Positions 27,112 to 43,473 of a DNA stretch of 64,000 nt are shown one piece after another; the stretch's first letter is position 1, and every line of letters starts with the position of its first letter. Source of the stretch: Escherichia phage inny. Position numbers and translations under genes: made by a program. The stretch lies in sequence record MN850601.1, one strand, 5' to 3'. Below the pieces are notes generated by a model, which made no database searches, was not told the origin of the DNA, and saw only the letters and a list, made by a program, of their open reading frames with translations.

Positions 27112-27381
27112 CTAAAATGATTCGTTTGTCTCCATAATATATTGCATTTCCAAATCTTCCATATGTTTCTTAAATTGGTAAACAATTTCCGATGGGGAAA
27201 TATCTATATCAAAAAGTTCTTTTGTACCAGAATAAAATCTAATACCATCAACAATAAGACCACCATAATAATCCCAATCACTTTCTCGTGAGAAAGGGTT
27301 AGGTTCTTCATAATAGTAATCTACTTCAACAATAATAGGTTCTTTATTATCTTGTTTATACTCAAAATCAAAAGTGTTCAT
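27112..27381 (-). CDS. hypothetical protein
   Basis: 89 aa; TAATG stop/start coupling with upstream glycosyltransferase gene. Confidence 0.4.
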   Translation of the reverse strand: MNTFDFEYKQDNKEPIIVEVDYYYEEPNPFSRESDWDYYGGLIVDGIRFYSGTKELFDIDISPSEIVYQFKKHMEDLEMQYIMETNESF

Positions 27382-28325
27382 TATAAATCCTCGATAAGCA
27401 GTCTGCGGGTTTCATTTAAATCATCAATATTGTAGTTATCTCTTACATACTTAGCAAGAGCCAATCCCTTCTCAATACAAACATCAGGAGATTCGATTAA
27501 GTATTCTACAATATCTTTCCACTCTTTAACTGAATCAGCAAAGAAGATTAGATCTTTAAATTCTTCAGTATAATAGTTCTCTCGTGGTGAACAAACGAGT
27601 GGCAAACCTTTAGCACCAGCTTCAAGAATTTTTAAATTACTTTTGGCATTATTAAAATGATTATTTACTAATGGAGCTATGGAGATTTGATGACCATCGT
27701 ATGCTTCCATATAACACTCATAAGGACGAATACCTTCATAAACACAATCTGGTTGAATATCTTCTTTAATTTGCAACCATTGAGCACTACTTAACTCTTC
27801 GTGATCTCTACGAAATCCACATAAAGTTAAATCTTTACCAAAACCAGGAAGAATTGCTAAATCATGTTTATGTGTTTCACTTCCCGCCCAAACTAGTGGA
27901 CTTTTAGAATAACGGTCTTTCGTAAGAACAAACTGTCCTTCATCAAAAGGTAATCCGTTAGGCACAATATGTACATTATCATTGTATTGGCTTAATTCAA
28001 CCTTTAATGCCGGAGTTGTTGTAGTTACAAGATCGCTTCTTTCAAGGAACCATTTTAGGTCATCTCGGATTTGATTTTCAAATAGTCCTTCAAGCATATG
28101 CCCTTCAGGAATAATTAAAGAATCATCCAGATCCATTACCAATTTAAACCCAAGTTGTTTAAGAGCCAGGAAACCTGGCTTTCCACGTGTTGGTACTCCA
28201 TTGAACACAAAAATATTATGCTTAGGATTAATTGTCAGTTTGCGTTTATATGGCAAAATGATTCTATGAAAATCACATATACTATACTTTTCATTTCCGC
28301 GTGTGTCAAGAATAATATTAGGCAT
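27381..28325 (-). CDS. glycosyltransferase, GT-B fold (GT1/GT4-like)
   Basis: 314 aa; C-terminal NAKSNLKILEAGAKGLPLVCS resembles GT4 E-x7-E region; AAGGAG RBS. Confidence 0.6.
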   Translation of the reverse strand: MPNIILDTRGNEKYSICDFHRIILPYKRKLTINPKHNIFVFNGVPTRGKPGFLALKQLGFKLVMDLDDSLIIPEGHMLEGLFENQIRDDLKWFLERSDLVTTTTPALKVELSQYNDNVHIVPNGLPFDEGQFVLTKDRYSKSPLVWAGSETHKHDLAILPGFGKDLTLCGFRRDHEELSSAQWLQIKEDIQPDCVYEGIRPYECYMEAYDGHQISIAPLVNNHFNNAKSNLKILEAGAKGLPLVCSPRENYYTEEFKDLIFFADSVKEWKDIVEYLIESPDVCIEKGLALAKYVRDNYNIDDLNETRRLLIEDL

Positions 28326-28336
28326 ATATCTCCTTG

Positions 28337-29311
28337 TTAAAGACTTTCAATAACTTGACGACGCAGTTCATTGGCATCTGCAAGATTATAATTAAGACGA
28401 ACGTGTTCTGCAAGCATCATACCACGATCTTCTGTGTATCTAGGGTTCCTCATTAGCTTGACAACTTCATAATGCCAAGATGCTTTAGAGTCTGCATAGA
28501 TAACAGCCTTTGCATCTACCGGATTGAAGTACGGCAGCACAGGAGAACAGATAATAGGAAGACCCTTTGCACCTGCTTCCAAAATCTTCAAATTGCTTTT
28601 ACAGTTGTTGAAGTCATTATCTACCAGGGGAGCAATTGCAATACTGTGACCGTCATACACAGACATATACTCACCTAAATTTTTAATAGCTGGTTTATAC
28701 TGTGCATTTGGAATCTTACGTTTTATTTTAACCCACTCCGCAGTAGTTAGATACTGACTATTATTTCCAACAGGTGCAGAAGGATACACTTCATACCCTG
28801 CAATTGTCAATAGTGTATCATCAAATGTATTAGCTACAAGAGATAAATCAGGTTCGTGGCTTGCTCCTCCAGCCCAGATAATAGGCGTGTCAGAATTACG
28901 GTCTTTTGTCAAAGTAAATTGACCTTCGTCGTAAGGTAGTGCGTTTCTAATAACGACAACATTACGATTTAAATGACGAATTTTGTAAGCTAGGTATTCT
29001 GTTGTTACAGTAACAACATCTGCTAACTTGACCATCTCTACAATAGTCTTTGAGTGATTAGTAAATACGCCAGCCATATAATGTTCAGGATTAAGTGAAT
29101 AAAAATCATCTAAATCAACAATAATCTTAACACCTTGTGCCTTCAGGCGTTTAACCTCGTCTGCTCCACGAGAATACACTCTATTAAAAACTAAAACGTC
29201 TTTCTTAGGTTTAAACGTATTTCCAGCAAATGGCATTACAATACGATGGTAATCACAACCACTGCCTAACTTATTATCACACTTAAGTACAGGAGTATTA
29301 GGATTTACCAT
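28337..29311 (-). CDS. glycosyltransferase, GT-B fold, paralog of 27381..28325 (start set at internal ATG 29311)
   Basis: Colinear similarity to neighbour including CKSNLKILEAGAKGLPIICS; N-terminus aligns from MVNPNTPV; GAGGAGG RBS. Confidence 0.6.
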   Translation of the reverse strand: MVNPNTPVLKCDNKLGSGCDYHRIVMPFAGNTFKPKKDVLVFNRVYSRGADEVKRLKAQGVKIIVDLDDFYSLNPEHYMAGVFTNHSKTIVEMVKLADVVTVTTEYLAYKIRHLNRNVVVIRNALPYDEGQFTLTKDRNSDTPIIWAGGASHEPDLSLVANTFDDTLLTIAGYEVYPSAPVGNNSQYLTTAEWVKIKRKIPNAQYKPAIKNLGEYMSVYDGHSIAIAPLVDNDFNNCKSNLKILEAGAKGLPIICSPVLPYFNPVDAKAVIYADSKASWHYEVVKLMRNPRYTEDRGMMLAEHVRLNYNLADANELRRQVIESL

Positions 29312-29984
29312 ATTTTTGAGCCTCCTCATAAGAGATAAAAGTTTTACCATTGCGAAGATCCTCCAGTGATTGTTTATATTGTTCCCAGTTTACACCAATC
29401 CCCTGTTCTTTCTCTTCTTTTGACAGATTCGCAAAAGGTAAAGGATTATCTCCAAATACATCATCAGGATGGATAAACGCCATAATTCGAATAGGACATG
29501 GCACGCCTTGAATACCTCGGTTCAAACCTGCCAGTGGAACGCGATGAATCCACTCTGCATCTTCATATCCATAACCGTGGGTGTATGAGCGGAAATAGCC
29601 AGCTTTCTCAATAACTGCACGGGAATACATACCAAACTGGCACATACCTAGTTCCCAAATAACCACTTCCCCTTCAATACCTTTTACTTTATCTTTAAAG
29701 TATTCAGGCATACCAAAGAAATCCCAACCATTTTCCTTCGCCTGTTTTACAAAATATGTTTCCCAACCTTGAACAACAGGATAGCAATCATCATCAAAAA
29801 TAAACCAGTAATCATACCCTTCATCATAAAACTTTTTCATCAGTTCATTACGAGCATATGCAACACCTTTTCGTTCACGATCATACTGTACAACAAAAGT
29901 AGCATTAGGATCAGTCACAAGATAATCTTTAAGAGGACGCTTACCTACAGTAATAACACCAACACCAATTTTTGTATTTTCCAA
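29298..29984 (-). CDS. glycosyltransferase, GT-A fold (family 2-like)
   Basis: 228 aa; VGVITVGKR...DYWFIFDDDCYP with DxD-type acidic motif; TTG start after AAGGAG. Confidence 0.55.
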   Translation of the reverse strand: MENTKIGVGVITVGKRPLKDYLVTDPNATFVVQYDRERKGVAYARNELMKKFYDEGYDYWFIFDDDCYPVVQGWETYFVKQAKENGWDFFGMPEYFKDKVKGIEGEVVIWELGMCQFGMYSRAVIEKAGYFRSYTHGYGYEDAEWIHRVPLAGLNRGIQGVPCPIRIMAFIHPDDVFGDNPLPFANLSKEEKEQGIGVNWEQYKQSLEDLRNGKTFISYEEAQKYGKS

Positions 29985-29993
29985 AATAACTCC

Positions 29994-30557
29994 TTAAATA
30001 ATTTTATTCATGTCTTGACAATGTAAAAGGTGTGAAACAGCTTTTCTAGGATCATCATTACCTAAACGGTAGGTGTGAAATAAATATAACCCACGTAATA
30101 AACCTAGCCTTTTGTTGTTAGCATGTAATGCTTTAGAGAAAATTATATCAAACTGTATTGACCTTTCCTCAAAAGGGATTTCATTCCACAGACTCTTACG
30201 AAAGAGAAGAAAGAATCCTGCTAAGATAGCATCTGTAGGTACTTCCTCTATTGAGTTTCCCCATTCTAGATGTGCTCTTTTTGCAATCTCAATGTGGTGT
30301 AATATATTCGGATCTTCACTTCTTTCATTATTAAATAATTGATATGTTGATCCCAATCTGTTACAAGATGCACCAAGAACATCAAAATCAGGATTTGAAC
30401 GGACAATTGATTCCAGCCAAGCAGGTTGTTCTGGAAGAAGAAACATTGTATCAATGTCTCTTAGGCAAATCCAACTATCTTCTGGTAAGACACTTATTGT
30501 GTCATTGATACCTTTTCCAATATCTCCAGAAAGATAGGGAGTTATGTGAAATATCAT
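29994..30557 (-). CDS. putative glycosyltransferase-like protein (GT-A-like N-terminus)
   Basis: 187 aa; N-terminal GDIGKGINDTISVLPEDSWICLRDIDTMF resembles GT-A nucleotide-sugar binding start. Confidence 0.35.
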   Translation of the reverse strand: MIFHITPYLSGDIGKGINDTISVLPEDSWICLRDIDTMFLLPEQPAWLESIVRSNPDFDVLGASCNRLGSTYQLFNNERSEDPNILHHIEIAKRAHLEWGNSIEEVPTDAILAGFFLLFRKSLWNEIPFEERSIQFDIIFSKALHANNKRLGLLRGLYLFHTYRLGNDDPRKAVSHLLHCQDMNKII

Positions 30558-32563: not shown

Positions 32564-33160
32564 TTACTCGAACCAATCGTCGCCAGCGCCAAACGCTTTA
32601 ACTACATCGTAAATGTCAAGCCCAGCTTTACCCACACCATACGCTTTCAGTTTCCATTCGCTATCTTCTCGCACCAGGGAGGCAACGTGGCAAATGGTAT
32701 TACCTGCAAGTTCTGGAGCTAAGAAATCAAAATCCAGCAGTTCAACGTTACGTTCATCATCGAAGATTTTAAGGAAACCTTCGGTAGCGTGACCAAGGCG
32801 TTTTTTACCCGTTTCGTCATCAATAGTAATTACGAATGCAATTTCCTGTGCTTCAGCAGAGATATTATCCAGCGTAACATCAATCTGCTCCATCTGTCCT
32901 ACACCGTCACGAACATCTTCACCTGCAAAAGTAGAACGTTCAGGATCAAATTTCTGTGCGTAGCATACCAGGTGGCGAGGAGACAACAGTTCCGGCAGAC
33001 CAGATGCATTGTGTCGGCAAATCAGAGCACTAACATCCAGATCCAGTTTTTCGTTAGATTTCCAAGAGAATTCCAGACGAATGCGTTTCAGTGCTGGTGC
33101 AATCTTTTTCAGAGAAACTTTTTCGCTAGAACCTTTTTTCAGGGAAATTTTCTGAGTCAT
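32564..33160 (-). CDS. terD: TerD-family protein (tellurium-resistance TerD/TerE/TerZ-like)
   Basis: 198 aa; ISLKKGSSEKVSLKK, LDLDVSALI, ITIDD and C-terminal EWKLKAYGVGKAGLDIY closely follow the TerD pattern. Confidence 0.8.
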   Translation of the reverse strand: MTQKISLKKGSSEKVSLKKIAPALKRIRLEFSWKSNEKLDLDVSALICRHNASGLPELLSPRHLVCYAQKFDPERSTFAGEDVRDGVGQMEQIDVTLDNISAEAQEIAFVITIDDETGKKRLGHATEGFLKIFDDERNVELLDFDFLAPELAGNTICHVASLVREDSEWKLKAYGVGKAGLDIYDVVKAFGAGDDWFE

Positions 33161-33232: not shown

Positions 33233-34027
33233 TTACGCTTTTGCTCCAAATTTTTTAACCCACTCGCCAAACTCTTCGGATAGCAGTTTATCGTAAAGTT
33301 CTTCGTCAGACAAGGACAAATCTGCAATACCGATAAAATCAACATTATCGTATTCTTTTGCCAAGTCTTTCAGGAATTTAAAGTTTGCATTACCTACACC
33401 AACCATAAACCAGTAAACAGGAGTGTTGCGGTGTTTGTTCAGCAAACTACGTACTGCTGAAGTATCCATGTTCTCCCCGTCAGTTTGGAAGAAAATCATT
33501 GCAGGAGTACGATCAACTTGTGCATCAGTATCTACAACCTGTTCTACAACAGTACGTGTAACTTCTACACGTTCTTTTTTACCAGTTAGTTTAGCAAGGA
33601 AGCCCTTAGCCGGAACTTCTTCATACTCAACGACTTCGCGTGTAATATTTTTCATAGGTACACTACCGAAGTATGTATCATAGATCTCTTGCATTACTGG
33701 AGCATAAGCTGTACCACCATTGATGCAAACATTAGACATACAAGAGCCGACATAATCATCATATACATCAGCCGTTGCAGGAGGCAGTTCAAAAGAAGAA
33801 CTATTGAAAGCCCACATGTCAATCTGTGCATTATCATCAAACTTCATACCAAACGGCAGCAGCTTACCTACAAAATCACTGACAGTGCCATCACGATACA
33901 GCTCACACATACTACCCGAAATATCTAAGGCGCTACCTACACGAAGAACAACATCGTTAATCTTTTTCTTACGCAGGGATACAGTAAGAGTTTCTTGACG
34001 TTTTTTAAGACTGATTTTATTGGACAT
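33233..34027 (-). CDS. von Willebrand factor A domain protein (TerY-like)
   Basis: 264 aa; MIDAS motif ALDISGSM, later IFFQTDGEN; adjacent to TerD as in ter-type neighbourhoods. Confidence 0.7.
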   Translation of the reverse strand: MSNKISLKKRQETLTVSLRKKKINDVVLRVGSALDISGSMCELYRDGTVSDFVGKLLPFGMKFDDNAQIDMWAFNSSSFELPPATADVYDDYVGSCMSNVCINGGTAYAPVMQEIYDTYFGSVPMKNITREVVEYEEVPAKGFLAKLTGKKERVEVTRTVVEQVVDTDAQVDRTPAMIFFQTDGENMDTSAVRSLLNKHRNTPVYWFMVGVGNANFKFLKDLAKEYDNVDFIGIADLSLSDEELYDKLLSEEFGEWVKKFGAKA

Positions 34028-35273: not shown

Positions 35274-36377
35274 TTAAAGTAGACCACGTTTAACAGTTTG
35301 AATCATACCATCTTCAAGAGATTGCACTTCTTGAATGTAATCAATACGAGCAGCACGGGCTTCAGTGTTGATTCGGTTAGTTTCTTCCAACATTTTAACT
35401 AAGTTTTCTTGATCACGACGCAATGTTTCAATATCCAATACTTGACGATTAGCAAGTTGTGTAGCTTCAATCTGGTTTTGTGCAGCCAGATCACTACCCA
35501 TTGCAATAGCAGCATTAAATTCATTCAGTACGTTGTTCTGTGTATCGGCTGCTTTCTTCTGGCGCAGACTTTCAATATACATAGAAAAGTTTGCAGAGTA
35601 AGCAGGAATAACATTGTTCACAATATTACGGGCTGATCGCATCAAACTTGCAGATACTTTCTGCATACTTTGTACACGTGGCCCCATCTGAACGCACAGT
35701 AAGCGTAAGGCTTTCAGGTCTGCAATACGAATTTCAAGCAGATCCATAGTGTCACGAGTACGTTGACGCTCTTCTACTTCATTTTCAGGTAGTGTATTAA
35801 GGCGAACTTCTTCTTTTTCATAAGTAGCTGTTAGAAGCTCTATATCCCTGTTTAAGCTAAGAGCATATTTTGCAATAGCCTCCTCTAAACGTTGCAGATA
35901 TCGTAAAGAATCTTCTTCTTTTTTCAAGTCTGTTTGGAGTGTCTTTACCAAACCCTCAATACGATTATTGATGGTGTCAAATTCTCCAAACAAATCTTCT
36001 TTCATACCTAATACTTTCTTAACTAACTTACCTAAACCTTTAGATTGTTTAATAGAATTAGGATCAAGTTGCTTTGCTTGCTTAATAAGTGCAGTTAAAC
36101 GTTCACTCATTTCATCTCCCTGAGATGAACGCTGGTGTTTAAGCACTTCAGCATTAAGGTTACGAAGAGTAAGTCCTGCATCAGCACCAACTTGTTCAAT
36201 CTCTTCACGAGACATTGGAGGCAGCATTTGTACAGGTCGTGCAACAGCAGGGGCATATACAGGACTTGCATCCATAGCACTTGGAGCAAACAAAGACTTA
36301 CTTTTTTCTGTTGTTGCCGTGAATACACTCATTTCAGACGGTTTGCTTTTTACGGCACTGATAAAAGGACTGGACAT
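35274..36377 (-). CDS. telA: TelA-like protein (toxic anion resistance / KlaA family)
   Basis: 367 aa mostly helical; LDPNSIKQSKGLGKLVKKVLG...FDTINNRIEGL matches TelA layout as recalled; sits in the Ter cluster. Confidence 0.55.
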   Translation of the reverse strand: MSSPFISAVKSKPSEMSVFTATTEKSKSLFAPSAMDASPVYAPAVARPVQMLPPMSREEIEQVGADAGLTLRNLNAEVLKHQRSSQGDEMSERLTALIKQAKQLDPNSIKQSKGLGKLVKKVLGMKEDLFGEFDTINNRIEGLVKTLQTDLKKEEDSLRYLQRLEEAIAKYALSLNRDIELLTATYEKEEVRLNTLPENEVEERQRTRDTMDLLEIRIADLKALRLLCVQMGPRVQSMQKVSASLMRSARNIVNNVIPAYSANFSMYIESLRQKKAADTQNNVLNEFNAAIAMGSDLAAQNQIEATQLANRQVLDIETLRRDQENLVKMLEETNRINTEARAARIDYIQEVQSLEDGMIQTVKRGLL

Positions 36378-37332: not shown

Positions 37333-37923
37333 TTAACGACGACGTGAGCTACTAAAACTACGTTTCGACGAAGAATAACTTTTCGAAGACTTACTATAAG
37401 AGCTAATAGGGCTTGAGTAAGACTTACGAGCAGAGTAATCACTATTCACTTTTGTTGTTGACGGGCGTGAATACGTTTGTACACTTTGCTGCTTAATTGT
37501 GTTTTGTTTAGTGGTTGTATATTTATTTCCTTGTTTATCATAAAAACTATGCTTTTGTGTTGTATATGCTTTACTGTTAGTTGTAGGAGCAGCGTTGTTA
37601 TTAATAATTGTTGTACTGCTACCACCATCTCTATAACCGCCACCGCCACTATTACCACTCAACATATGACCAAGAAGCATACCTGTAGCAAACTCACCTA
37701 CACCAGAAGAACCACTGCCGCCTCCTTGCACAACAACTGTTGAAGGTTGTGCAGGTGCTGCTTGAACAACTTGAGGTGCAGGTTGATTTACATATTGTTC
37801 ATCTACCATCTGATTTGGTGTTTGTTGGTAACGTTGATTTTGTACATTTTCAGAATCATCACAACCTACCAGCAATGCACTACCTAATACAACTGCAACA
37901 ATAAAAGATTTAATGTTTTTCAT
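37333..37923 (-). CDS. lipoprotein with glycine-zipper segment (start at second ATG)
   Basis: Signal peptide with lipobox LLVGC; Gly-rich GGGSGSSGVGEFATGMLLGHMLSGNSGGGG; Ser/Gln-rich tail. Confidence 0.5.
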   Translation of the reverse strand: MKNIKSFIVAVVLGSALLVGCDDSENVQNQRYQQTPNQMVDEQYVNQPAPQVVQAAPAQPSTVVVQGGGSGSSGVGEFATGMLLGHMLSGNSGGGGYRDGGSSTTIINNNAAPTTNSKAYTTQKHSFYDKQGNKYTTTKQNTIKQQSVQTYSRPSTTKVNSDYSARKSYSSPISSYSKSSKSYSSSKRSFSSSRRR

Positions 37924-38116
37924 TTGTAACCCTCTCATTTAAAGTCTCAACACAATTTTTAAAATCCCTAGAGAAACAATACATCTGTTCTCCGTTCCTG
38001 TTGATAGTAATTGTATGGTTATCAATATATGTTGTCAAGATAAAAATCAAACAAAACAACCCTAGAGCAAAACAAATATTTTCAAACAGAATCCAAAGAA
38101 CACGTAAAACCACCAT
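37910..38116 (-). CDS. small hydrophobic protein
   Basis: 68 aa with one hydrophobic helix. Confidence 0.3.
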   Translation of the reverse strand: MVVLRVLWILFENICFALGLFCLIFILTTYIDNHTITINRNGEQMYCFSRDFKNCVETLNERVTNEKH

Positions 38117-38155: not shown

Positions 38156-39133
38156 TTAAGCAACAGTCTGGTCTTCTTTTTCAGGGAAGATTAAACTTGC
38201 AATAACACCCAACCCAAGAGTACCTAACACAATATACATACTGATCGTCGGATCAATGTGTGCTGGCAGGAAACTCACTTTTGCGTGCAGAGTTTCTGCA
38301 AACGGATGATACATCAGTTTTACACCCACAAACACCAGGACTACGATAACTGCTTTCTCCAGATGAACCAAATACTTCAGTGCAACACTAAGAACAAAGA
38401 ACAGAGCACGTAAACCTAAGATTGCACAAAGCATCGAAGAGAACACCAGCAGAGGTTCTTGTGTCACTGCAATTACTGCTGGAACAGAGTCTACTGCAAA
38501 GATTACGTCTACCATTTCCATTACAAACACACAAACCAGAGCCGGAGTTGCTACACGAACACCATTTTTGATTGTGAAGAACTTCTCACCATCCATCTGA
38601 TCAGATACAGGGAACAGCTTACGAACAATACGAGTAGCCCAGTGTTTAGAGTAATCAATTTCTGCATCATTATCCCCAGCGAATACCATTTTAGCCGCAC
38701 AGAAAAGGATGACAGCACCGAAGAAGATATTAACATACCAGCCCAAACTCAACAAGTAAGTACCTACTGCTACAAACACACCTCGGAAGACAATTGCACC
38801 TGCAATACCCCAAAGTAGAATCTTGTGCTGCAAGTGTGTGCTTTTAATACCAAAACTTGCGAAGACTGCCACAAATACTACTAAGTTATCTACAGAAAGA
38901 GATTTCTCCAACACATAACCACTCAAGAACAAGCTCGCAAAATCAGCACCGTGTTGGAAGTATACAAAACCATAGTAGGCTAATGATACCCCAATCCAGA
39001 AAATTGACCAACCAATTGCAGATTTAAATGAGATCTCTTTGTTTTCTCTGTGTCCAAAGAAGTCAATACAAATCGACAAGACTAAAATACCCACTAAAAC
39101 AACCACATCAATAATTGGGAAACCCAGTTGCAT
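38156..39133 (-). CDS. terC: TerC-family integral membrane protein
   Basis: 325 aa polytopic; EKSLSVDNLVVFVAVF and later AVDSVPAVIAVT match TerC/Alx signatures. Confidence 0.8.
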   Translation of the reverse strand: MQLGFPIIDVVVLVGILVLSICIDFFGHRENKEISFKSAIGWSIFWIGVSLAYYGFVYFQHGADFASLFLSGYVLEKSLSVDNLVVFVAVFASFGIKSTHLQHKILLWGIAGAIVFRGVFVAVGTYLLSLGWYVNIFFGAVILFCAAKMVFAGDNDAEIDYSKHWATRIVRKLFPVSDQMDGEKFFTIKNGVRVATPALVCVFVMEMVDVIFAVDSVPAVIAVTQEPLLVFSSMLCAILGLRALFFVLSVALKYLVHLEKAVIVVLVFVGVKLMYHPFAETLHAKVSFLPAHIDPTISMYIVLGTLGLGVIASLIFPEKEDQTVA

Positions 39134-39151: not shown

Positions 39152-39170
39152 GCGGAGGACAATCCTCCGC
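39152..39170 (-). promoter_or_regulatory. 5' leader hairpin immediately upstream of terC RBS
   Basis: GCGGAGG-(5 nt)-CCTCCGC inverted repeat ends 5 nt before the AGAGGAG RBS of terC. Confidence 0.4.
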
Positions 39171-39182
39171 TCTATGTCTTAT

Positions 39183-39210
39183 ACTATAAACTGTTTTTAA
39201 AGAAAGTCAA
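39183..39210 (-). promoter_or_regulatory. candidate sigma70-like promoter for terC
   Basis: Minus-strand TTGACT, 16-nt spacer, TATAGT directly after upstream stop codon. Confidence 0.35.
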
Positions 39211-39459
39211 CTAGTTCAGTTCTGTAATTTTAAGTTTATCTTCTTTGTTAATGATAGGGAAAGCTACAGCATCACCTACGTCATCAATAAAGCAAATAGC
39301 AATACCACCTTCCACTTTGCTAATCTGACCATTAAAGGCATGATACGGGGCAGGAACTTGATCTCCATCTTCAAGGAGAATAGCCTCGTAAACCTTGCCG
39401 ATAGTACAATCACGAGTGTTTCTAAATTTTTCAAGCACTTCAACATTTACTTTACGCAT
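39211..39459 (-). CDS. hypothetical protein
   Basis: 82 aa; GAGAGGA RBS. Confidence 0.4.
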   Translation of the reverse strand: MRKVNVEVLEKFRNTRDCTIGKVYEAILLEDGDQVPAPYHAFNGQISKVEGGIAICFIDDVGDAVAFPIINKEDKLKITELN

Positions 39460-39473
39460 ATAAAAATCCTCTC

Positions 39474-39680
39474 TTATTTGTTAGATTGAAAGATACCACG
39501 AAGTACCGCAAGAATGAACGTCACACAGACTACACTCCAAAACGTTACAGGAACATGATGCCAGTCTAAACCGATAATGTCAATCATATAGTTGTATGCT
39601 AAAAGCAGTAGCCAACTAGGGATTAACACAATCAAGAACACAACAATAAAACAACCTAATACTGCTAAAACACCTGCCAT
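39474..39680 (-). CDS. small membrane protein
   Basis: 68 aa, two hydrophobic helices; AAGGAG RBS. Confidence 0.4.
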   Translation of the reverse strand: MAGVLAVLGCFIVVFLIVLIPSWLLLLAYNYMIDIIGLDWHHVPVTFWSVVCVTFILAVLRGIFQSNK

Positions 39681-39689
39681 ACTTTCTCC

Positions 39690-40406
39690 TTATTTCAGTT
39701 TGTAAACAATTACATTTAAACCTTTGTTCACTAGAGTTTCTTCGATCATAAGTTTTACAATATTCCAAGAACCTCCAGCCAAACCACAACCAAGCATTGG
39801 TAAACCTACAATTTTACCGCCTGAAGATACAACATCGTCTCCCATACTATCTAACGCATTGTAGATAGCTTCATAATTCAGGTCACGCTTACCTTCCTCA
39901 CGACGACTATAACCATATTGTCCATATAAATTATAAATTGTCAAATTGTTTTCTGTATATTTGGTAAACGTACCTAATTTTTTATAATCACCACGTTTAG
40001 TGGCACAATCTGCTTTAAACGCACCAGGCCACTTGCTTTTAATTTTTGGTGCAATACCACTACCCATAGTGCAAAAACAGTTACAGCAGTGTGCTATAGC
40101 GTCTATATCGCCTCTCTCGGCTGCTGCTAAAAGATCACCGTATACCTCAATGATACCTGCCGGATAACTTGTTACAATTTCATCTTCCCAATACATTTTC
40201 TCTACACCACCGATCAGTGCAAAGTTTTGTGTAATGCGATCATCAATATAGTTAAGACCTGAAACATACACAGCGTATTCATCCTGTGCTGTAATACCTT
40301 GCACACGAATTCTTAAGACACCATCTTTATCTGTTGCTACACGCCCAAAATCTTTTTCTGTAATATTGGTGATAGGATCTCCGAAAGTCATTACTTTATT
40401 AGACAT
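39690..40406 (-). CDS. macro-domain protein (ADP-ribose binding/processing), start at internal ATG overlapping upstream stop
   Basis: GDLLAAAERGDIDAIAHCCNCFCTMGSGIA parallels GDIT..DAIVNAAN..GGGV; later GLPMLGCGLAGGSW; ATGTCTAA start/stop overlap with PRTase gene. Confidence 0.6.
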   Translation of the reverse strand: MSNKVMTFGDPITNITEKDFGRVATDKDGVLRIRVQGITAQDEYAVYVSGLNYIDDRITQNFALIGGVEKMYWEDEIVTSYPAGIIEVYGDLLAAAERGDIDAIAHCCNCFCTMGSGIAPKIKSKWPGAFKADCATKRGDYKKLGTFTKYTENNLTIYNLYGQYGYSRREEGKRDLNYEAIYNALDSMGDDVVSSGGKIVGLPMLGCGLAGGSWNIVKLMIEETLVNKGLNVIVYKLK

Positions 40407-41256
40407 AATAATCCCCTTTAACATTAGGTTTGTTGATAATGTTGCTTTCAAAAAATTGACGTAGGAAATCAAAGTTCTCTTTGTATTTTTCAATGTTATT
40501 GTAACCTTCTGCAAGGCAACCAAAGAACAGTTGTTCTACATAATACAAAGGAAGTTGTGAAAGTGCAATTTTAAAATCAACTTCGCTTTGACTCATTAGA
40601 TACTTAATAGGACGAACCAAACATTTAGCATCAGCTTCTTGCTTAATCATTTTAATAAAAGCTGCCAGATTATTGATATAGTTGAAGTTAAGTGCAGCTT
40701 CGGTGTTGGCTTCTGTACCTTCATACTTTGCAAAGTACAGGAAAAACGTATCGTTTTCAACACCTTCTTTGTCTAAAATTTCAATAAGTTTTTCTTCGTG
40801 TGTTCCTGTAATATTAACATCATCAATGAAAATCAGAGTTTTATTACCCCAGAAATCACGATTGATAGAGAAAGTGTCACCATCGATCAAAGCCTTACGA
40901 TCTTCTTTGCTAAGAAATCCATAATCATTGATATAGCTCACTTTACGATGAACGATATCCCACTCCACTGGTTTACCACCTTTGATAGAGATTAGGTAGT
41001 TGAGGTGATCTACAAAATGTTCAGATAACACTGTAGCTGCATTTTTCACATAGTTATATGGAGATGGAATAACAACAAAACTTTCATTTACCAGTCGTTC
41101 TTCATACTTAGAAAAGAAACTTTCAGCCAGAATGCGCCCCATTCTTTTTGCTGCCTGGTTACTACCAAACTTTAGTTTGGAATAATCTGCAATGTTAAAT
41201 TTTGCTTCCTTCAGGTTAGTAAAAGTATTAGCAAAATGTTGAATTTGATTACGCAT
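40399..41256 (-). CDS. type I phosphoribosyltransferase-fold protein
   Basis: 285 aa; KTLIFIDDVNITGTHEE matches the PRPP-binding motif hhhhDDhhTTGxT; 8-nt overlaps with both neighbours. Confidence 0.65.
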   Translation of the reverse strand: MRNQIQHFANTFTNLKEAKFNIADYSKLKFGSNQAAKRMGRILAESFFSKYEERLVNESFVVIPSPYNYVKNAATVLSEHFVDHLNYLISIKGGKPVEWDIVHRKVSYINDYGFLSKEDRKALIDGDTFSINRDFWGNKTLIFIDDVNITGTHEEKLIEILDKEGVENDTFFLYFAKYEGTEANTEAALNFNYINNLAAFIKMIKQEADAKCLVRPIKYLMSQSEVDFKIALSQLPLYYVEQLFFGCLAEGYNNIEKYKENFDFLRQFFESNIINKPNVKGDYYV

Positions 41257-41905
41257 TAATAAGTTCCTCTTTTTTAAGTTTAGCCAACAAGTCTTCTGGA
41301 TTAATAATATGACAGAACTTCATCCCTATGTCAACAGCTTTTCCATCATAAATCAAACTATCTCCAACGTGTAAAATCTCTTCTGGTGCGAGATCAAACG
41401 TCACCATTTCATCAAAAGAGAGTTTAAAAAACCTAGGATCTGGTTTACACAAGCAAAACTCGTCAGAAAAATGCATAAAGTCAAATGGTAATTTTGTTAA
41501 GCCAGAATATACAGCTAAGAAACTACCTGGTACAAAATTAGTATTGCTCTTAATACTCAAAGAGTAGGTTGAACTTAGCTCTTCCAACTTCTTGCAAAGT
41601 TCAGGATTCAATGTTGGAGGATGTTTTATAAACATTGCCAAACAATCTCTTTTTAACCCATCCACTTTATCAAGATCAATGTTCAAACGAGTAGAAAGTG
41701 TTACCCAAGCATCCTTAGACGTTCCACAAATGCCTTTTTCTGCTTTTAAATCCAAGAAAGTTTTTACCTCTTTGTATACGGTAGCTGCTTCTGCCTCAGA
41801 GCAAGAGGCATACTCGGCAATAACCTTGTTGCGCTCTTCTGCATACAAAGGGTTAGCAGTAATAAGAGTATTCCATACATCAAAAGAAATATGCTTAACA
41901 GTCAT
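41249..41905 (-). CDS. HAD-superfamily hydrolase-like protein (non-canonical motif I), start at ATG with GGAGG RBS
   Basis: N-terminal KHISFDVWNTLI in motif I position (second Asp replaced); C-terminal HVGDSLIYDGKA fits GDxxxD motif IV. Confidence 0.5.
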   Translation of the reverse strand: MTVKHISFDVWNTLITANPLYAEERNKVIAEYASCSEAEAATVYKEVKTFLDLKAEKGICGTSKDAWVTLSTRLNIDLDKVDGLKRDCLAMFIKHPPTLNPELCKKLEELSSTYSLSIKSNTNFVPGSFLAVYSGLTKLPFDFMHFSDEFCLCKPDPRFFKLSFDEMVTFDLAPEEILHVGDSLIYDGKAVDIGMKFCHIINPEDLLAKLKKEELINA

Positions 41906-42266: not shown

Positions 42267-42285
42267 AATACCCTCCATATAAATA

Positions 42286-42309
42286 AAGGAGGCTTTCGCC
42301 TCCTTTTAT
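42286..42309 (-). terminator. rho-independent terminator after AAA+ ATPase gene
   Basis: GGAGGC-(TTTC)-GCCTCC hairpin; minus strand followed by TTTATTTAT. Confidence 0.55.
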
Positions 42310-42312
42310 CAC

Positions 42313-43473
42313 TTAGTAAGAACGACCACCAAACACATACTCTGTGTAGTTTTTACGTTCTTTGTTTTTAATAACAACTTCAATGTTGTTGCCTTTATCA
42401 TCGGTGAACACAAAGTGATAACCGTCACCACCCATTGTACGGATGTGTTTTTCATCATACGTCAGCAAGATACGGTCTACACCCCAGTAGTAGTCACCTT
42501 CTTCATCTTTGTCTTCTACTGTAACGACCCCTTCCATTTCAGGAAGATGCTCCTCTCCTAGCTTATGGTCTACAGCTACAACATAACGATTACCGCTAAA
42601 CAAACCCTGTGCTGTCATACCGTCAATATCGGTATCTGCCGAAACATCTCCTGTACGATCTACACCGTTAACTTTCAGGAGTTTAACTTCTTTTGCAGCA
42701 TAGCGGTGTTCAGTAATACTGATACCCATTAATGCAAGTGCATCAGAGAATTTGTCATTAGGGTAACGGTTAAGTTCTTCTACTAGTGACTGAACAATAT
42801 CAAAGTTCAAGTCCACGGAAAGATTATAAAGCGTTTCAAAATCTGGTAAAAAGGCTTTGTTCTCCAGATTTTTAGCCAGATAGTCATCCATAGTAGCTTT
42901 AGGTAGTTTCTTATAGCTAAAACTGTAGAAAATACGGCTAGGACGATTACGCAAAAATTCTGATACATAACCATCATTTTTAGTCAATACAAACAGCTTG
43001 TCATAGCCACCTACACCATCCAGCAGAGTAAGCAAACCATCCTGTGCATCTTTTTCAGCATACAGTTTATCAAATTCATCGATCATAATCATCACAGGTT
43101 GTGTGATTTTAGACATAAAATTGATAAAGCCTTCGCCATTAAAAGCACTACCGATAGAAATAGTAGGAATACCCATTTCACGAAGAGCAGAAGACAGCAT
43201 TTTAGCTTGCAAAGTTTTACCACTACCCTTCGTACCCTCAAGGAGAACACCTGTGTTTTTACCTTTGCGGCTAAGGAACGTCTTGATAATACGTTCTGAT
43301 TTATCATCAGTATCACCGTATGTTACTGAAGGGACTTCCATATCGTTTTTAGGATACAGGAAGAACTCACCACTTTGAGTAACACCTACACCAAAAGTTC
43401 CTGCTGGAATTTCTTCAATATCTGTACCAGATTTCTGACGCAGGAAGATTTGATTGCCGAATACTGTAAACAT
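42313..43473 (-). CDS. AAA+-type ATPase, paralog A
   Basis: 386 aa; Walker A GTKGSGKT, Walker B VMIMIDEFDK, sensor-like LFVLTKND; colinear with 59019..60146. Confidence 0.6.
   Translation of the reverse strand: MFTVFGNQIFLRQKSGTDIEEIPAGTFGVGVTQSGEFFLYPKNDMEVPSVTYGDTDDKSERIIKTFLSRKGKNTGVLLEGTKGSGKTLQAKMLSSALREMGIPTISIGSAFNGEGFINFMSKITQPVMIMIDEFDKLYAEKDAQDGLLTLLDGVGGYDKLFVLTKNDGYVSEFLRNRPSRIFYSFSYKKLPKATMDDYLAKNLENKAFLPDFETLYNLSVDLNFDIVQSLVEELNRYPNDKFSDALALMGISITEHRYAAKEVKLLKVNGVDRTGDVSADTDIDGMTAQGLFSGNRYVVAVDHKLGEEHLPEMEGVVTVEDKDEEGDYYWGVDRILLTYDEKHIRTMGGDGYHFVFTDDKGNNIEVVIKNKERKNYTEYVFGGRSY

Follow-up and report, generated by a model that had tools for sequence, protein, structure and literature searches.

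Gene order of the HAD, phosphoribosyltransferase and macrodomain cassette

We analysed a 64,000-nt stretch of the genome of Escherichia phage inny (sequence record MN850601.1; hereafter the window), in which three adjacent genes on the minus strand encode a HAD-superfamily hydrolase, a type I phosphoribosyltransferase (PRTase) and a protein containing a macrodomain. An original prediction, made from the sequence alone, had recognised these three domains and had joined them into a single, translationally coupled enzyme module located directly upstream of terC. All three domain calls proved correct in Pfam, PHROGs and PDB matches, and the cassette has the following features.

41249..41905, minus strand: HAD-superfamily hydrolase, 218 aa, homologue of phi92 gp187
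40399..41256, minus strand: type I PRTase, PRTase_3 (ComF-like), 285 aa, homologue of phi92 gp186
39690..40406, minus strand: macro fusion protein, 238 aa, homologue of phi92 gp185
41249..41256, minus strand: stop/start overlap of the HAD and PRTase genes, 8 nt, ATGCGTAA
40399..40406, minus strand: stop/start overlap of the PRTase and macro fusion genes, 8 nt, ATGTCTAA, in the phi92-like lineage only
40155..40406, minus strand: N-terminal 84 residues of the macro protein, not macrodomain, homologous to the N-domain of a 188-aa protein
39690..40154, minus strand: macrodomain, residues ~85-238, ALC1-like class (SCO6735, BT1257, TARG1, DarG)

The 5.5-kb segment spanning the cassette shares 99.9% identity with Escherichia phage ALITA, a phi92-like Justusliebigvirus of the Stephanstirmvirinae, and 98% with phi92, Paula and the BASEL phages, which belong to the same genus and subfamily. 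Domain names for all three genes were already present in the GenBank records of these sister phages, with the BASEL records (e.g. Bas60) naming them 'putative HAD-like superfamily protein', 'putative phosphoribosyltransferase' and 'putative macrodomain protein'. Four records labelled 'Campylobacter phage' with C. jejuni as the host (MG065639, MG065645, MG065656 and MG065689) are also 98% identical to E. coli phi92-like phages here, so their host labels look doubtful.

Both 8-nt overlaps are in the sequence as described, and each of the three starts is preceded by a Shine-Dalgarno-like site, GGAGGA for the HAD gene, AAGAGGA for the PRTase gene and AAAGGGGA for the macro gene. Some GenBank records (e.g. 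Bas60) place the macro start 18 nt further upstream, which yields a 244-aa protein and lengthens the overlap to 26 nt, and this alternative start lacks a Shine-Dalgarno-like site. In the annotation of ALITA, overlaps occur at 17 of the 59 same-strand junctions, three of these being 8 nt long, so an overlap alone is weak evidence for shared function. Because overlaps are common in this genome and the one between the PRTase and macro genes is lineage-specific, we rejected the latter as evidence of coupling.

A conserved HAD-PRTase_3 pair shared with Ter loci

We compared the cassette with a phage set of 27 phage, plasmid and metagenome loci and with a bacterial set, for which one genome per species was scanned, relatives were found in 377 species and the best 80 loci were examined; these 80 comprise 79 genuine bacterial loci and one phage contig. 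HAD and PRTase_3 form a conserved two-gene unit of which the macrodomain is no part. The HAD gene was found directly upstream of the PRTase_3 gene on the same strand at 27/27 loci of the phage set and at 80/80 loci of the bacterial set, and the pair was seen in phAPEC8, Xanthomonas phage XaC1, Rhizobium phages, metagenomic phage contigs, a Rhizobium plasmid and a Hymenobacter plasmid. The overlap of the two genes (ATGxxTAA) is conserved far outside Justusliebigvirus, recurring in phAPEC8-like phages, in the contigs L016 and L017, in L009 and L020 (48% identity) and in L026, whereas the PRTase/macro overlap is not. A macro gene lies near the pair in none of the 79 genuine bacterial loci, and the single macro-positive locus among the 80 (L032; JAEZZU010000022.1, labelled 'MAG: Proteobacteria bacterium') is a phAPEC8-like phage fragment that holds gp189, HAD, PRTase and macro genes in the phage order. 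Given this absence from bacterial loci and the lineage-specific overlap, the earlier suggestion that the macrodomain marks an ADP-ribose-related substrate or product of one three-enzyme module is not supported.

The PRTase matches PF15610 (PRTase_3) with an E-value of 1.3e-41 and 143.2 bits against a cut-off of 28.7, over profile positions 14-264 of 264, and this match places the protein in a ComF-like family. The predicted phosphoribosyl pyrophosphate (PRPP) loop of a type I PRTase is present at residues 141-155 (LIFIDDVNITGTHEE). Residue conservation was counted over 108 PRTase open reading frames (ORFs) and 108 linked HAD ORFs from loci L001-L111, and D145, D146, T150, G151 and H153 of the PRPP loop, together with 13 further positions, are invariant in 108/108 PRTase ORFs. 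The structure model of the PRTase is confident and displays a PRTase fold with an additional C-terminal helical region (~residues 185-274); fold searches returned ComFC and HGPRT as the closest structures, and a sequence search of the PDB gave no meaningful match.

The ComF-like designation given by Pfam and the action of this macrodomain class on DNA (PMC9411070) would both fit a DNA-centred module, in which a PRPP-binding PRTase_3 handles or marks single-stranded DNA in the manner of ComFC, with the HAD protein as its partner and the macrodomain also working on DNA. We consider such a module improbable. The phage PRTase shares 12% identity with ComFC (H. pylori ComF, PDB 7p0h), has no evident zinc-finger N-terminus, carries an extra C-terminal helical domain and is always paired with a HAD protein, and the helicase partner ComFA is absent. 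In addition, the strict coupling in bacteria to HAD together with TerD, TelA and TerC points to a membrane or small-molecule system, and the PRPP-loop residues are all invariant, as catalysis would predict.

The HAD protein scored just under the Pfam Hydrolase cut-off (26.3 bits against 26.4), matched phrog_14393 (E 1e-118) and matched PDB 2om6 over its full length (E 6e-8); all NCBIfam HAD-IA models remained under their own cut-offs. Motif I of HAD phosphatases reads DxDx(T/V), in which the first Asp is the nucleophile and the Asp+2 residue the general acid/base. In the phage protein, motif I is SFDVWNTL, with the nucleophile Asp9 present and Trp11 in place of Asp+2, which confirms the non-canonical motif noticed earlier (FDVWNTL, Trp for the second Asp), and motifs II (S120-N121), III (K154-P155) and IV (G181-D182...D187) are all present. 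Among the PRTase-linked HAD proteins, D9 is found in 107/107 and W11 in 106/107, the remaining one having Tyr, and 106-108 of the 108 ORFs retain motifs II-IV (Ser-Asn, Lys, acidic pair). The near-invariant Trp at Asp+2 is a hallmark of the PRTase-linked HAD subfamily rather than a peculiarity of one phage, a detail that appears to be new. The archaeal structural-genomics protein of PDB 2om6 also has FDVWNTL.

Ter genes accompany the pair in bacteria, as had been anticipated from comparative-genomic work: within 10 kb of the adjacent genes, TerD is found at 73/80, TelA at 70/80 and TerC at 58/80 loci of the bacterial set, typically in the order HAD-PRT-TerD-TelA-TerC and often as an operon. 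In the window, Ter genes are located downstream of the pair, with TerC at 1.3 kb, TelA at 4 kb, vWA-TerF at 6.4 kb and TerD at 7.2 kb.

38156..39133, minus strand: TerC/Alx-family membrane protein (PF03741 E 1.4e-38; TIGR03718 322 bits, cut-off 246)
35274..36377, minus strand: TelA-family protein (PF05816 E 5e-34)
33233..34027, minus strand: vWA domain, TerF C-terminal type (PF10138 E 7e-39)
32564..33160, minus strand: TerD-domain protein (PF02342 E 5e-28)

Among the components of Ter systems are PRTases and HAD enzymes for which synthesis of a nucleoside or nucleotide derivative has been predicted (PMC7824862, PMC5512222), and Iyer et al. 2021 (PMC7824862) noted such proteins in phage ME3 and 'certain other related smaller tailed phages'; the 'nucleoside-like metabolite' was proposed by Anantharaman, Iyer and Aravind in 2012 (summarised in PMC7824862). 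By its adjacency and its Ter neighbours, the phage HAD-PRTase pair can be assigned to this 'biosynthetic' pair of Ter systems, with which it shares PF15610, the order and coupling of HAD and PRTase, and TerD, TelA, TerC and TerF-type vWA neighbours. It differs in that the phage copy resides in a virulent coliphage, with a macrodomain gene inserted between the pair and terC, and in that the phage lacks the TerB/TerZ/TerA/TerE set. To our knowledge, the phage also has neither the ATP-grasp protein nor the second PRTase of the large enterobacterial ter locus.

Alternatively, the pair could serve phage replication through ordinary nucleotide salvage or pool sanitising, be unlinked to the Ter proteins and merely sit among nucleotide-metabolism genes (NrdD/G, MazG-like, NUDIX). 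The cassette does adjoin nrdD/nrdG, several phage lineages have no Ter gene within 10 kb, and the only TerD-like match of XaC1 is ~165 kb from the pair, but this explanation seems doubtful in view of the TerD, TelA or TerC genes near the pair at 73 of the 80 loci, the absence of any NCBIfam salvage-enzyme match for the PRTase family and the structural distance of the PRTase from HGPRT and OPRT (TM-scores of 0.35-0.44). The action of a PRTase followed by that of a phosphatase would undo salvage, which also counts against it. The NARP systems reportedly use Prs-like/Nampt-like enzymes or Nampt with Nmnat. An NAD-salvage reading of this kind was rejected, as the required enzyme families were not found in the cassette, where Pfam and NCBIfam scans gave only PRTase_3, HAD and Macro. 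NARP1 and NARP2 (10.1101/2024.02.11.579819) resemble the cassette in having a phage PRPP-using enzyme near ADP-ribose-related genes, but differ in their Adps with Namat or Nampt with Nmnat, neither of which those scans detected.

The macrodomain and its N-terminal module

The designation of the third protein as a macro protein holds for residues ~85-238, whereas residues 1-84 are a different module. The protein matches PF01661 over residues 106-217 (E 2e-7, 31.3 bits, cut-off 22), both macro motifs, AHCCNCFCTMGSGIA and GCGLAGG, are present, and the macrodomain is modelled by AlphaFold 2 (AF2) with pLDDT >90. Sequence matches in the PDB are 5e3b, 2fg1 and 4j5q, the best being SCO6735 (E 3e-15), and Foldseek returned TARG1 (E 1e-12, TMt 0.90), BT1257, DarG and SCO6735. 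In tblastn searches, the macro part was found in 2,972 phage records versus 156 for the PRTase, making it ~19-fold more widespread, and nearly all of its homologues are stand-alone proteins of ~150 aa. A macro gene is adjacent to the PRTase gene only in Stephanstirmvirinae; elsewhere, where both are present, the two are 6-7.5 kb apart.

Comparison within Stephanstirmvirinae shows how the overlap of the PRTase and macro genes came about. In phAPEC8-like phages, a 157-aa macro gene begins 9-13 nt past the PRTase gene, and in the contig L030 the gap is 1 nt, while in L016 and L017, which are closer sister contigs (80% PRTase identity), the gap is 560-945 nt and contains one or two extra genes. 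A 188-aa protein is encoded between PRTase and macro in these sister Stephanstirmvirinae (L016 9505-10071; L017 4024-4590), joining a novel N-domain to a C-terminal half that is MazG-like (phrog_1247, E 1.9e-21; named 'NTP pyrophosphatase' by one source). The 188-aa protein is represented by ~27 protein clusters, many on ~150-kb phage contigs. Residues 1-84 of the macro protein match the first ~85 residues of the 188-aa protein in BLASTP (E 2e-6 and 2e-5), and hhalign aligned the N-module with the N-domain of the 188-aa protein at a probability of 97.2% (E 4.5e-11); a database-level phmmer search from the 188-aa sister protein failed to recover the phi92 N-extension at E ≤ 0.01, and the homology is based on pairwise BLASTP, hhalign and synteny.

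Given this homology to the N-domain of the MazG neighbour, the phi92-type gene is a fusion left by deletion of a MazG-like domain, and the PRTase/macro overlap arose by lineage-specific deletion and fusion. The macro gene became fused to the N-domain when the MazG part was lost, the same deletion creating the 8-nt overlap. An N-module/macro fusion of the same type, without the overlap, is found in a more distant contig. The N-module has an AF2 pLDDT of only 32-61; it is kept under constraint, carrying seven synonymous variants and one non-synonymous variant in close relatives. The fusion history of the macro protein appears to be a new detail.

From its residues and closest relatives, the macro protein can be placed in the DarG/TARG1/SCO6735 class, whose members act on ADP-ribosylated DNA or protein, but it is not a DarG. 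SCO6735, an enzyme that removes ADP-ribose from DNA thymidines, rescues cells from DarT; its Gln85 and Asn27 are essential in mutagenesis, and its Lys34 and Lys89 position the DNA (PMC9411070). Q163 and N109 of the phage protein are the equivalents of Gln85 and Asn27, and both are invariant in 37 family members. In common with the SCO6735/BT1257 subclass (ALC1-like), the phage protein has Gln (Q163) at the position of TARG1 Lys84 and DarG Lys80, N109 and the GCGLAGG loop, and it retains the Asn that positions the catalytic-site Gln (PMC9411070); it differs from SCO6735 in having Cys at Val25 and Ser at both DNA-contacting lysines. The catalytic dyad of TARG1, Lys84/Asp125, aligns to Gln163/Ala210. 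With DarG of DarTG2 the protein shares the macro fold and a sequence match over the macro part, but it has Gln for the catalytic Lys and lacks both a C-terminal DarT-binding domain and a neighbouring darT. The DarG model NF048014 gave 48.9 bits against a cut-off of 250, over profile positions 4-147 of 338, and DarG models matched the macro part only (E 5e-13 and 1e-13, below threshold). PADLOC likewise returned a sub-family DarG match for the macro protein only, and nothing for the HAD, PRTase or Ter proteins.

The macrodomain is also related to T4 Tk.4, with 30% identity (BLASTP E 9e-18), both proteins falling in phrog_335 (E 7e-65 and 1e-65). They have in common the motifs AHxCNCFxTMGSG, NLYxQ and P.IGxG...G.W, and neither has a DarT-binding domain, both being orphan macrodomains; the phi92-type protein differs in adding the 84-residue N-module from the MazG-like neighbour. 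Tk.4, since renamed AdfM, is required for the growth of T4 on DarTG2 hosts (preprint 10.1101/2025.11.20.689424), and Bas60-62, phages of the same genus as the one studied here, carry a validated anti-DarTG1 NADAR enzyme (PMC11825919). By analogy with these relatives, the macrodomain probably reverses DNA ADP-ribosylation. The counter-defence role that had been proposed for the cassette is thus plausible for the macrodomain alone, directed at DNA ADP-ribosylation as in its anti-DarTG2 homologue of T4, and not at NAD depletion.

Transcription unit, neighbouring genes and interpretation

The genes and signals flanking the cassette, other than the Ter genes, are as follows.

42285..42306, minus strand: terminator-like hairpin 3' of the AAA ATPase gene; phage Paula has annotated terminators at this site
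39474..39680, minus strand: predicted membrane protein, 68 aa, gp184 homologue
39211..39459, minus strand: protein of unknown function, 82 aa, gp183 homologue
39152..39210, minus strand: sigma70-like promoter (TTGACT ... TATAGT) and 5'-untranslated-region hairpin GCGGAGGATTGTCCTCCGC before terC

The hairpin at 42285..42306 is likely the upstream boundary of a transcription unit comprising gp189, gp188 and the HAD, PRTase and macro genes. On the downstream side, terC does not follow the cassette directly, since the 68-aa gene, the 82-aa gene and the sigma70-like promoter with its hairpin intervene; the 68-aa membrane protein is encoded directly 3' of the macro gene throughout Stephanstirmvirinae. 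The 5' untranslated region of terC, within a 77-nt spacer, contains a perfect 8-bp hairpin followed by a strong Shine-Dalgarno site, and a promoter is annotated at the matching position in phAPEC8. Genes of the TerC/Alx family are frequently under the control of the yybP-ykoY riboswitch. A riboswitch before terC was ruled out by an Rfam scan of the whole window, which gave no match, the spacer consisting of the promoter-like site and a simple hairpin.

Several neighbouring genes were observed in addition. Upstream of the cassette, the gp190 homologue, an AAA ATPase, has a paralogue in ALITA, located ~16 kb off on the opposite strand (window 42313-43473; L001 40430-41593; phmmer E 1e-75). In phAPEC8-like and related phages, a conserved 201-aa protein of phrog_22504 without a Pfam match is encoded just upstream of the HAD gene (L003 7745-8350; L016 6981-7625; L017 1924-2529); phi92-like phages lack it and carry a 51-aa gene in its place. 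The product of the gene following terC (window 37333-37938; phrog_21570) combines a lipoprotein-like signal (…LLVGC) with a long tail rich in Ser, Gly and Thr, and the gene is conserved with the Ter cluster in Stephanstirmvirinae. Elsewhere in the window, a run of glycosyltransferase-like genes (27381-30557) adjoins primase/helicase and DNA polymerase genes, and one of them (29298-29984) matches the TET-associated glycosyltransferase family PF20691 weakly (E 4e-5, below the cut-off).

We favour, at a probability of roughly 0.6, a reading in which the cassette consists of two functionally separate, co-transcribed modules, a Ter-type HAD-PRTase_3 pair and an AdfM-like anti-DarT2 macrodomain. It builds on observed family memberships, conserved residues, gene order, co-occurrence and fusion history, and the pair and the macrodomain are both of known kinds. 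The PRTase would most likely join the phosphoribose of PRPP to a base-like acceptor, and the coupled HAD protein may process the product or a by-product of the PRTase, the usual proposal being that it takes off the 5'-phosphate and leaves a riboside. What the pair makes is thought to act with the membrane-associated TerD/TelA/TerC proteins, which the phage also encodes, and proposed uses include remodelling the infected cell or excluding competitors. Independently of the pair, the orphan macrodomain would most likely strip ADP-ribose from thymidines of phage DNA and thereby counter DarT2-type defence.

The three proteins might instead constitute a single pathway that makes or destroys a small molecule derived from ADP-ribose or NAD, either as a metabolite-synthesis module or as a counter to defence that depletes NAD or signals through ADP-ribose derivatives. 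In phi92-like phages, the three genes are coupled and apparently transcribed together, the PRTase...macro order is kept across Stephanstirmvirinae, and a MazG-like nucleoside triphosphate (NTP) pyrophosphatase separates the two in sister phages; in a Rhizobium phage, a gene annotated as a putative nicotinamide mononucleotide (NMN) adenylyltransferase/NUDIX protein lies ~250 nt past the pair, although the Pfam scan identified NUDIX only. We nevertheless regard a single pathway as unlikely, given that the pair occurs without macro in every genuine bacterial locus and in most phage lineages, that pair and macro are kilobases apart outside the subfamily, that the macro family is so much more widespread in phages than the PRTase, and that the overlap is a recent product of a deletion. 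Moreover, this macrodomain class targets macromolecular ADP-ribose (PMC9411070), and Pfam and NCBIfam scans found no NAD-salvage enzyme (Nampt, Nmnat or Adps-like) in the cassette. A bolder version, in which the Stephanstirmvirinae macrodomain and its inherited N-module act on a ribosyl-linked product of HAD(Trp)-PRTase_3, completing a three-step pathway that makes or erases the 'nucleoside-like' Ter signal during infection, strikes us as less probable still.

Several points weigh against the two-module reading. The 80 bacterial loci come mostly from Sphingobacteriaceae and Rhizobium and are not independent samples, and 11 of the 27 loci in the phage set, representing ~8 distinct lineages, have no Ter gene within 10 kb of the pair, so the Ter link in phages is frequent but not obligate. 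The PRTase is structurally closest to ComFC, a DNA-uptake protein without a clear catalytic role, and literature searches found no experimental characterisation of PRTase_3/HAD. With Trp at Asp+2 in nearly all linked HAD proteins, a simple phosphomonoesterase step is not assured, and removal of the 5'-phosphate by a HAD phosphatase would best be treated as an assumption. For the macrodomain, the DNA-contacting Lys34 and Lys89 of SCO6735 are replaced by Ser116 and Ser167, with Arg168-Arg169 following, and the evidence on AdfM comes from one preprint on that distant homologue. The conserved order HAD-PRTase-(x)-macro-membrane protein-TerC across the subfamily, together with the apparent co-transcription, makes functional cooperation possible. 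Finally, all enzymatic activities, substrates and infection roles given here for PRTase_3, HAD and macro are inferred.

Taken together, the findings leave current concepts unchanged. A nucleoside-like product has been the prediction for the Ter HAD-PRTase pair since 2012, and the presence of the pair with a minimal Ter set in phages easily grown on E. coli K-12 (phi92, BASEL Bas60) makes these phages a tractable place to find that product, and offers a chance to explain the presence of Ter genes in virulent phages. As a second anti-DarT factor of this phage group the macrodomain is a good candidate, and if directed at DarT2 it would, beside the validated NADAR enzyme, complete an anti-DarT set, as in T4.

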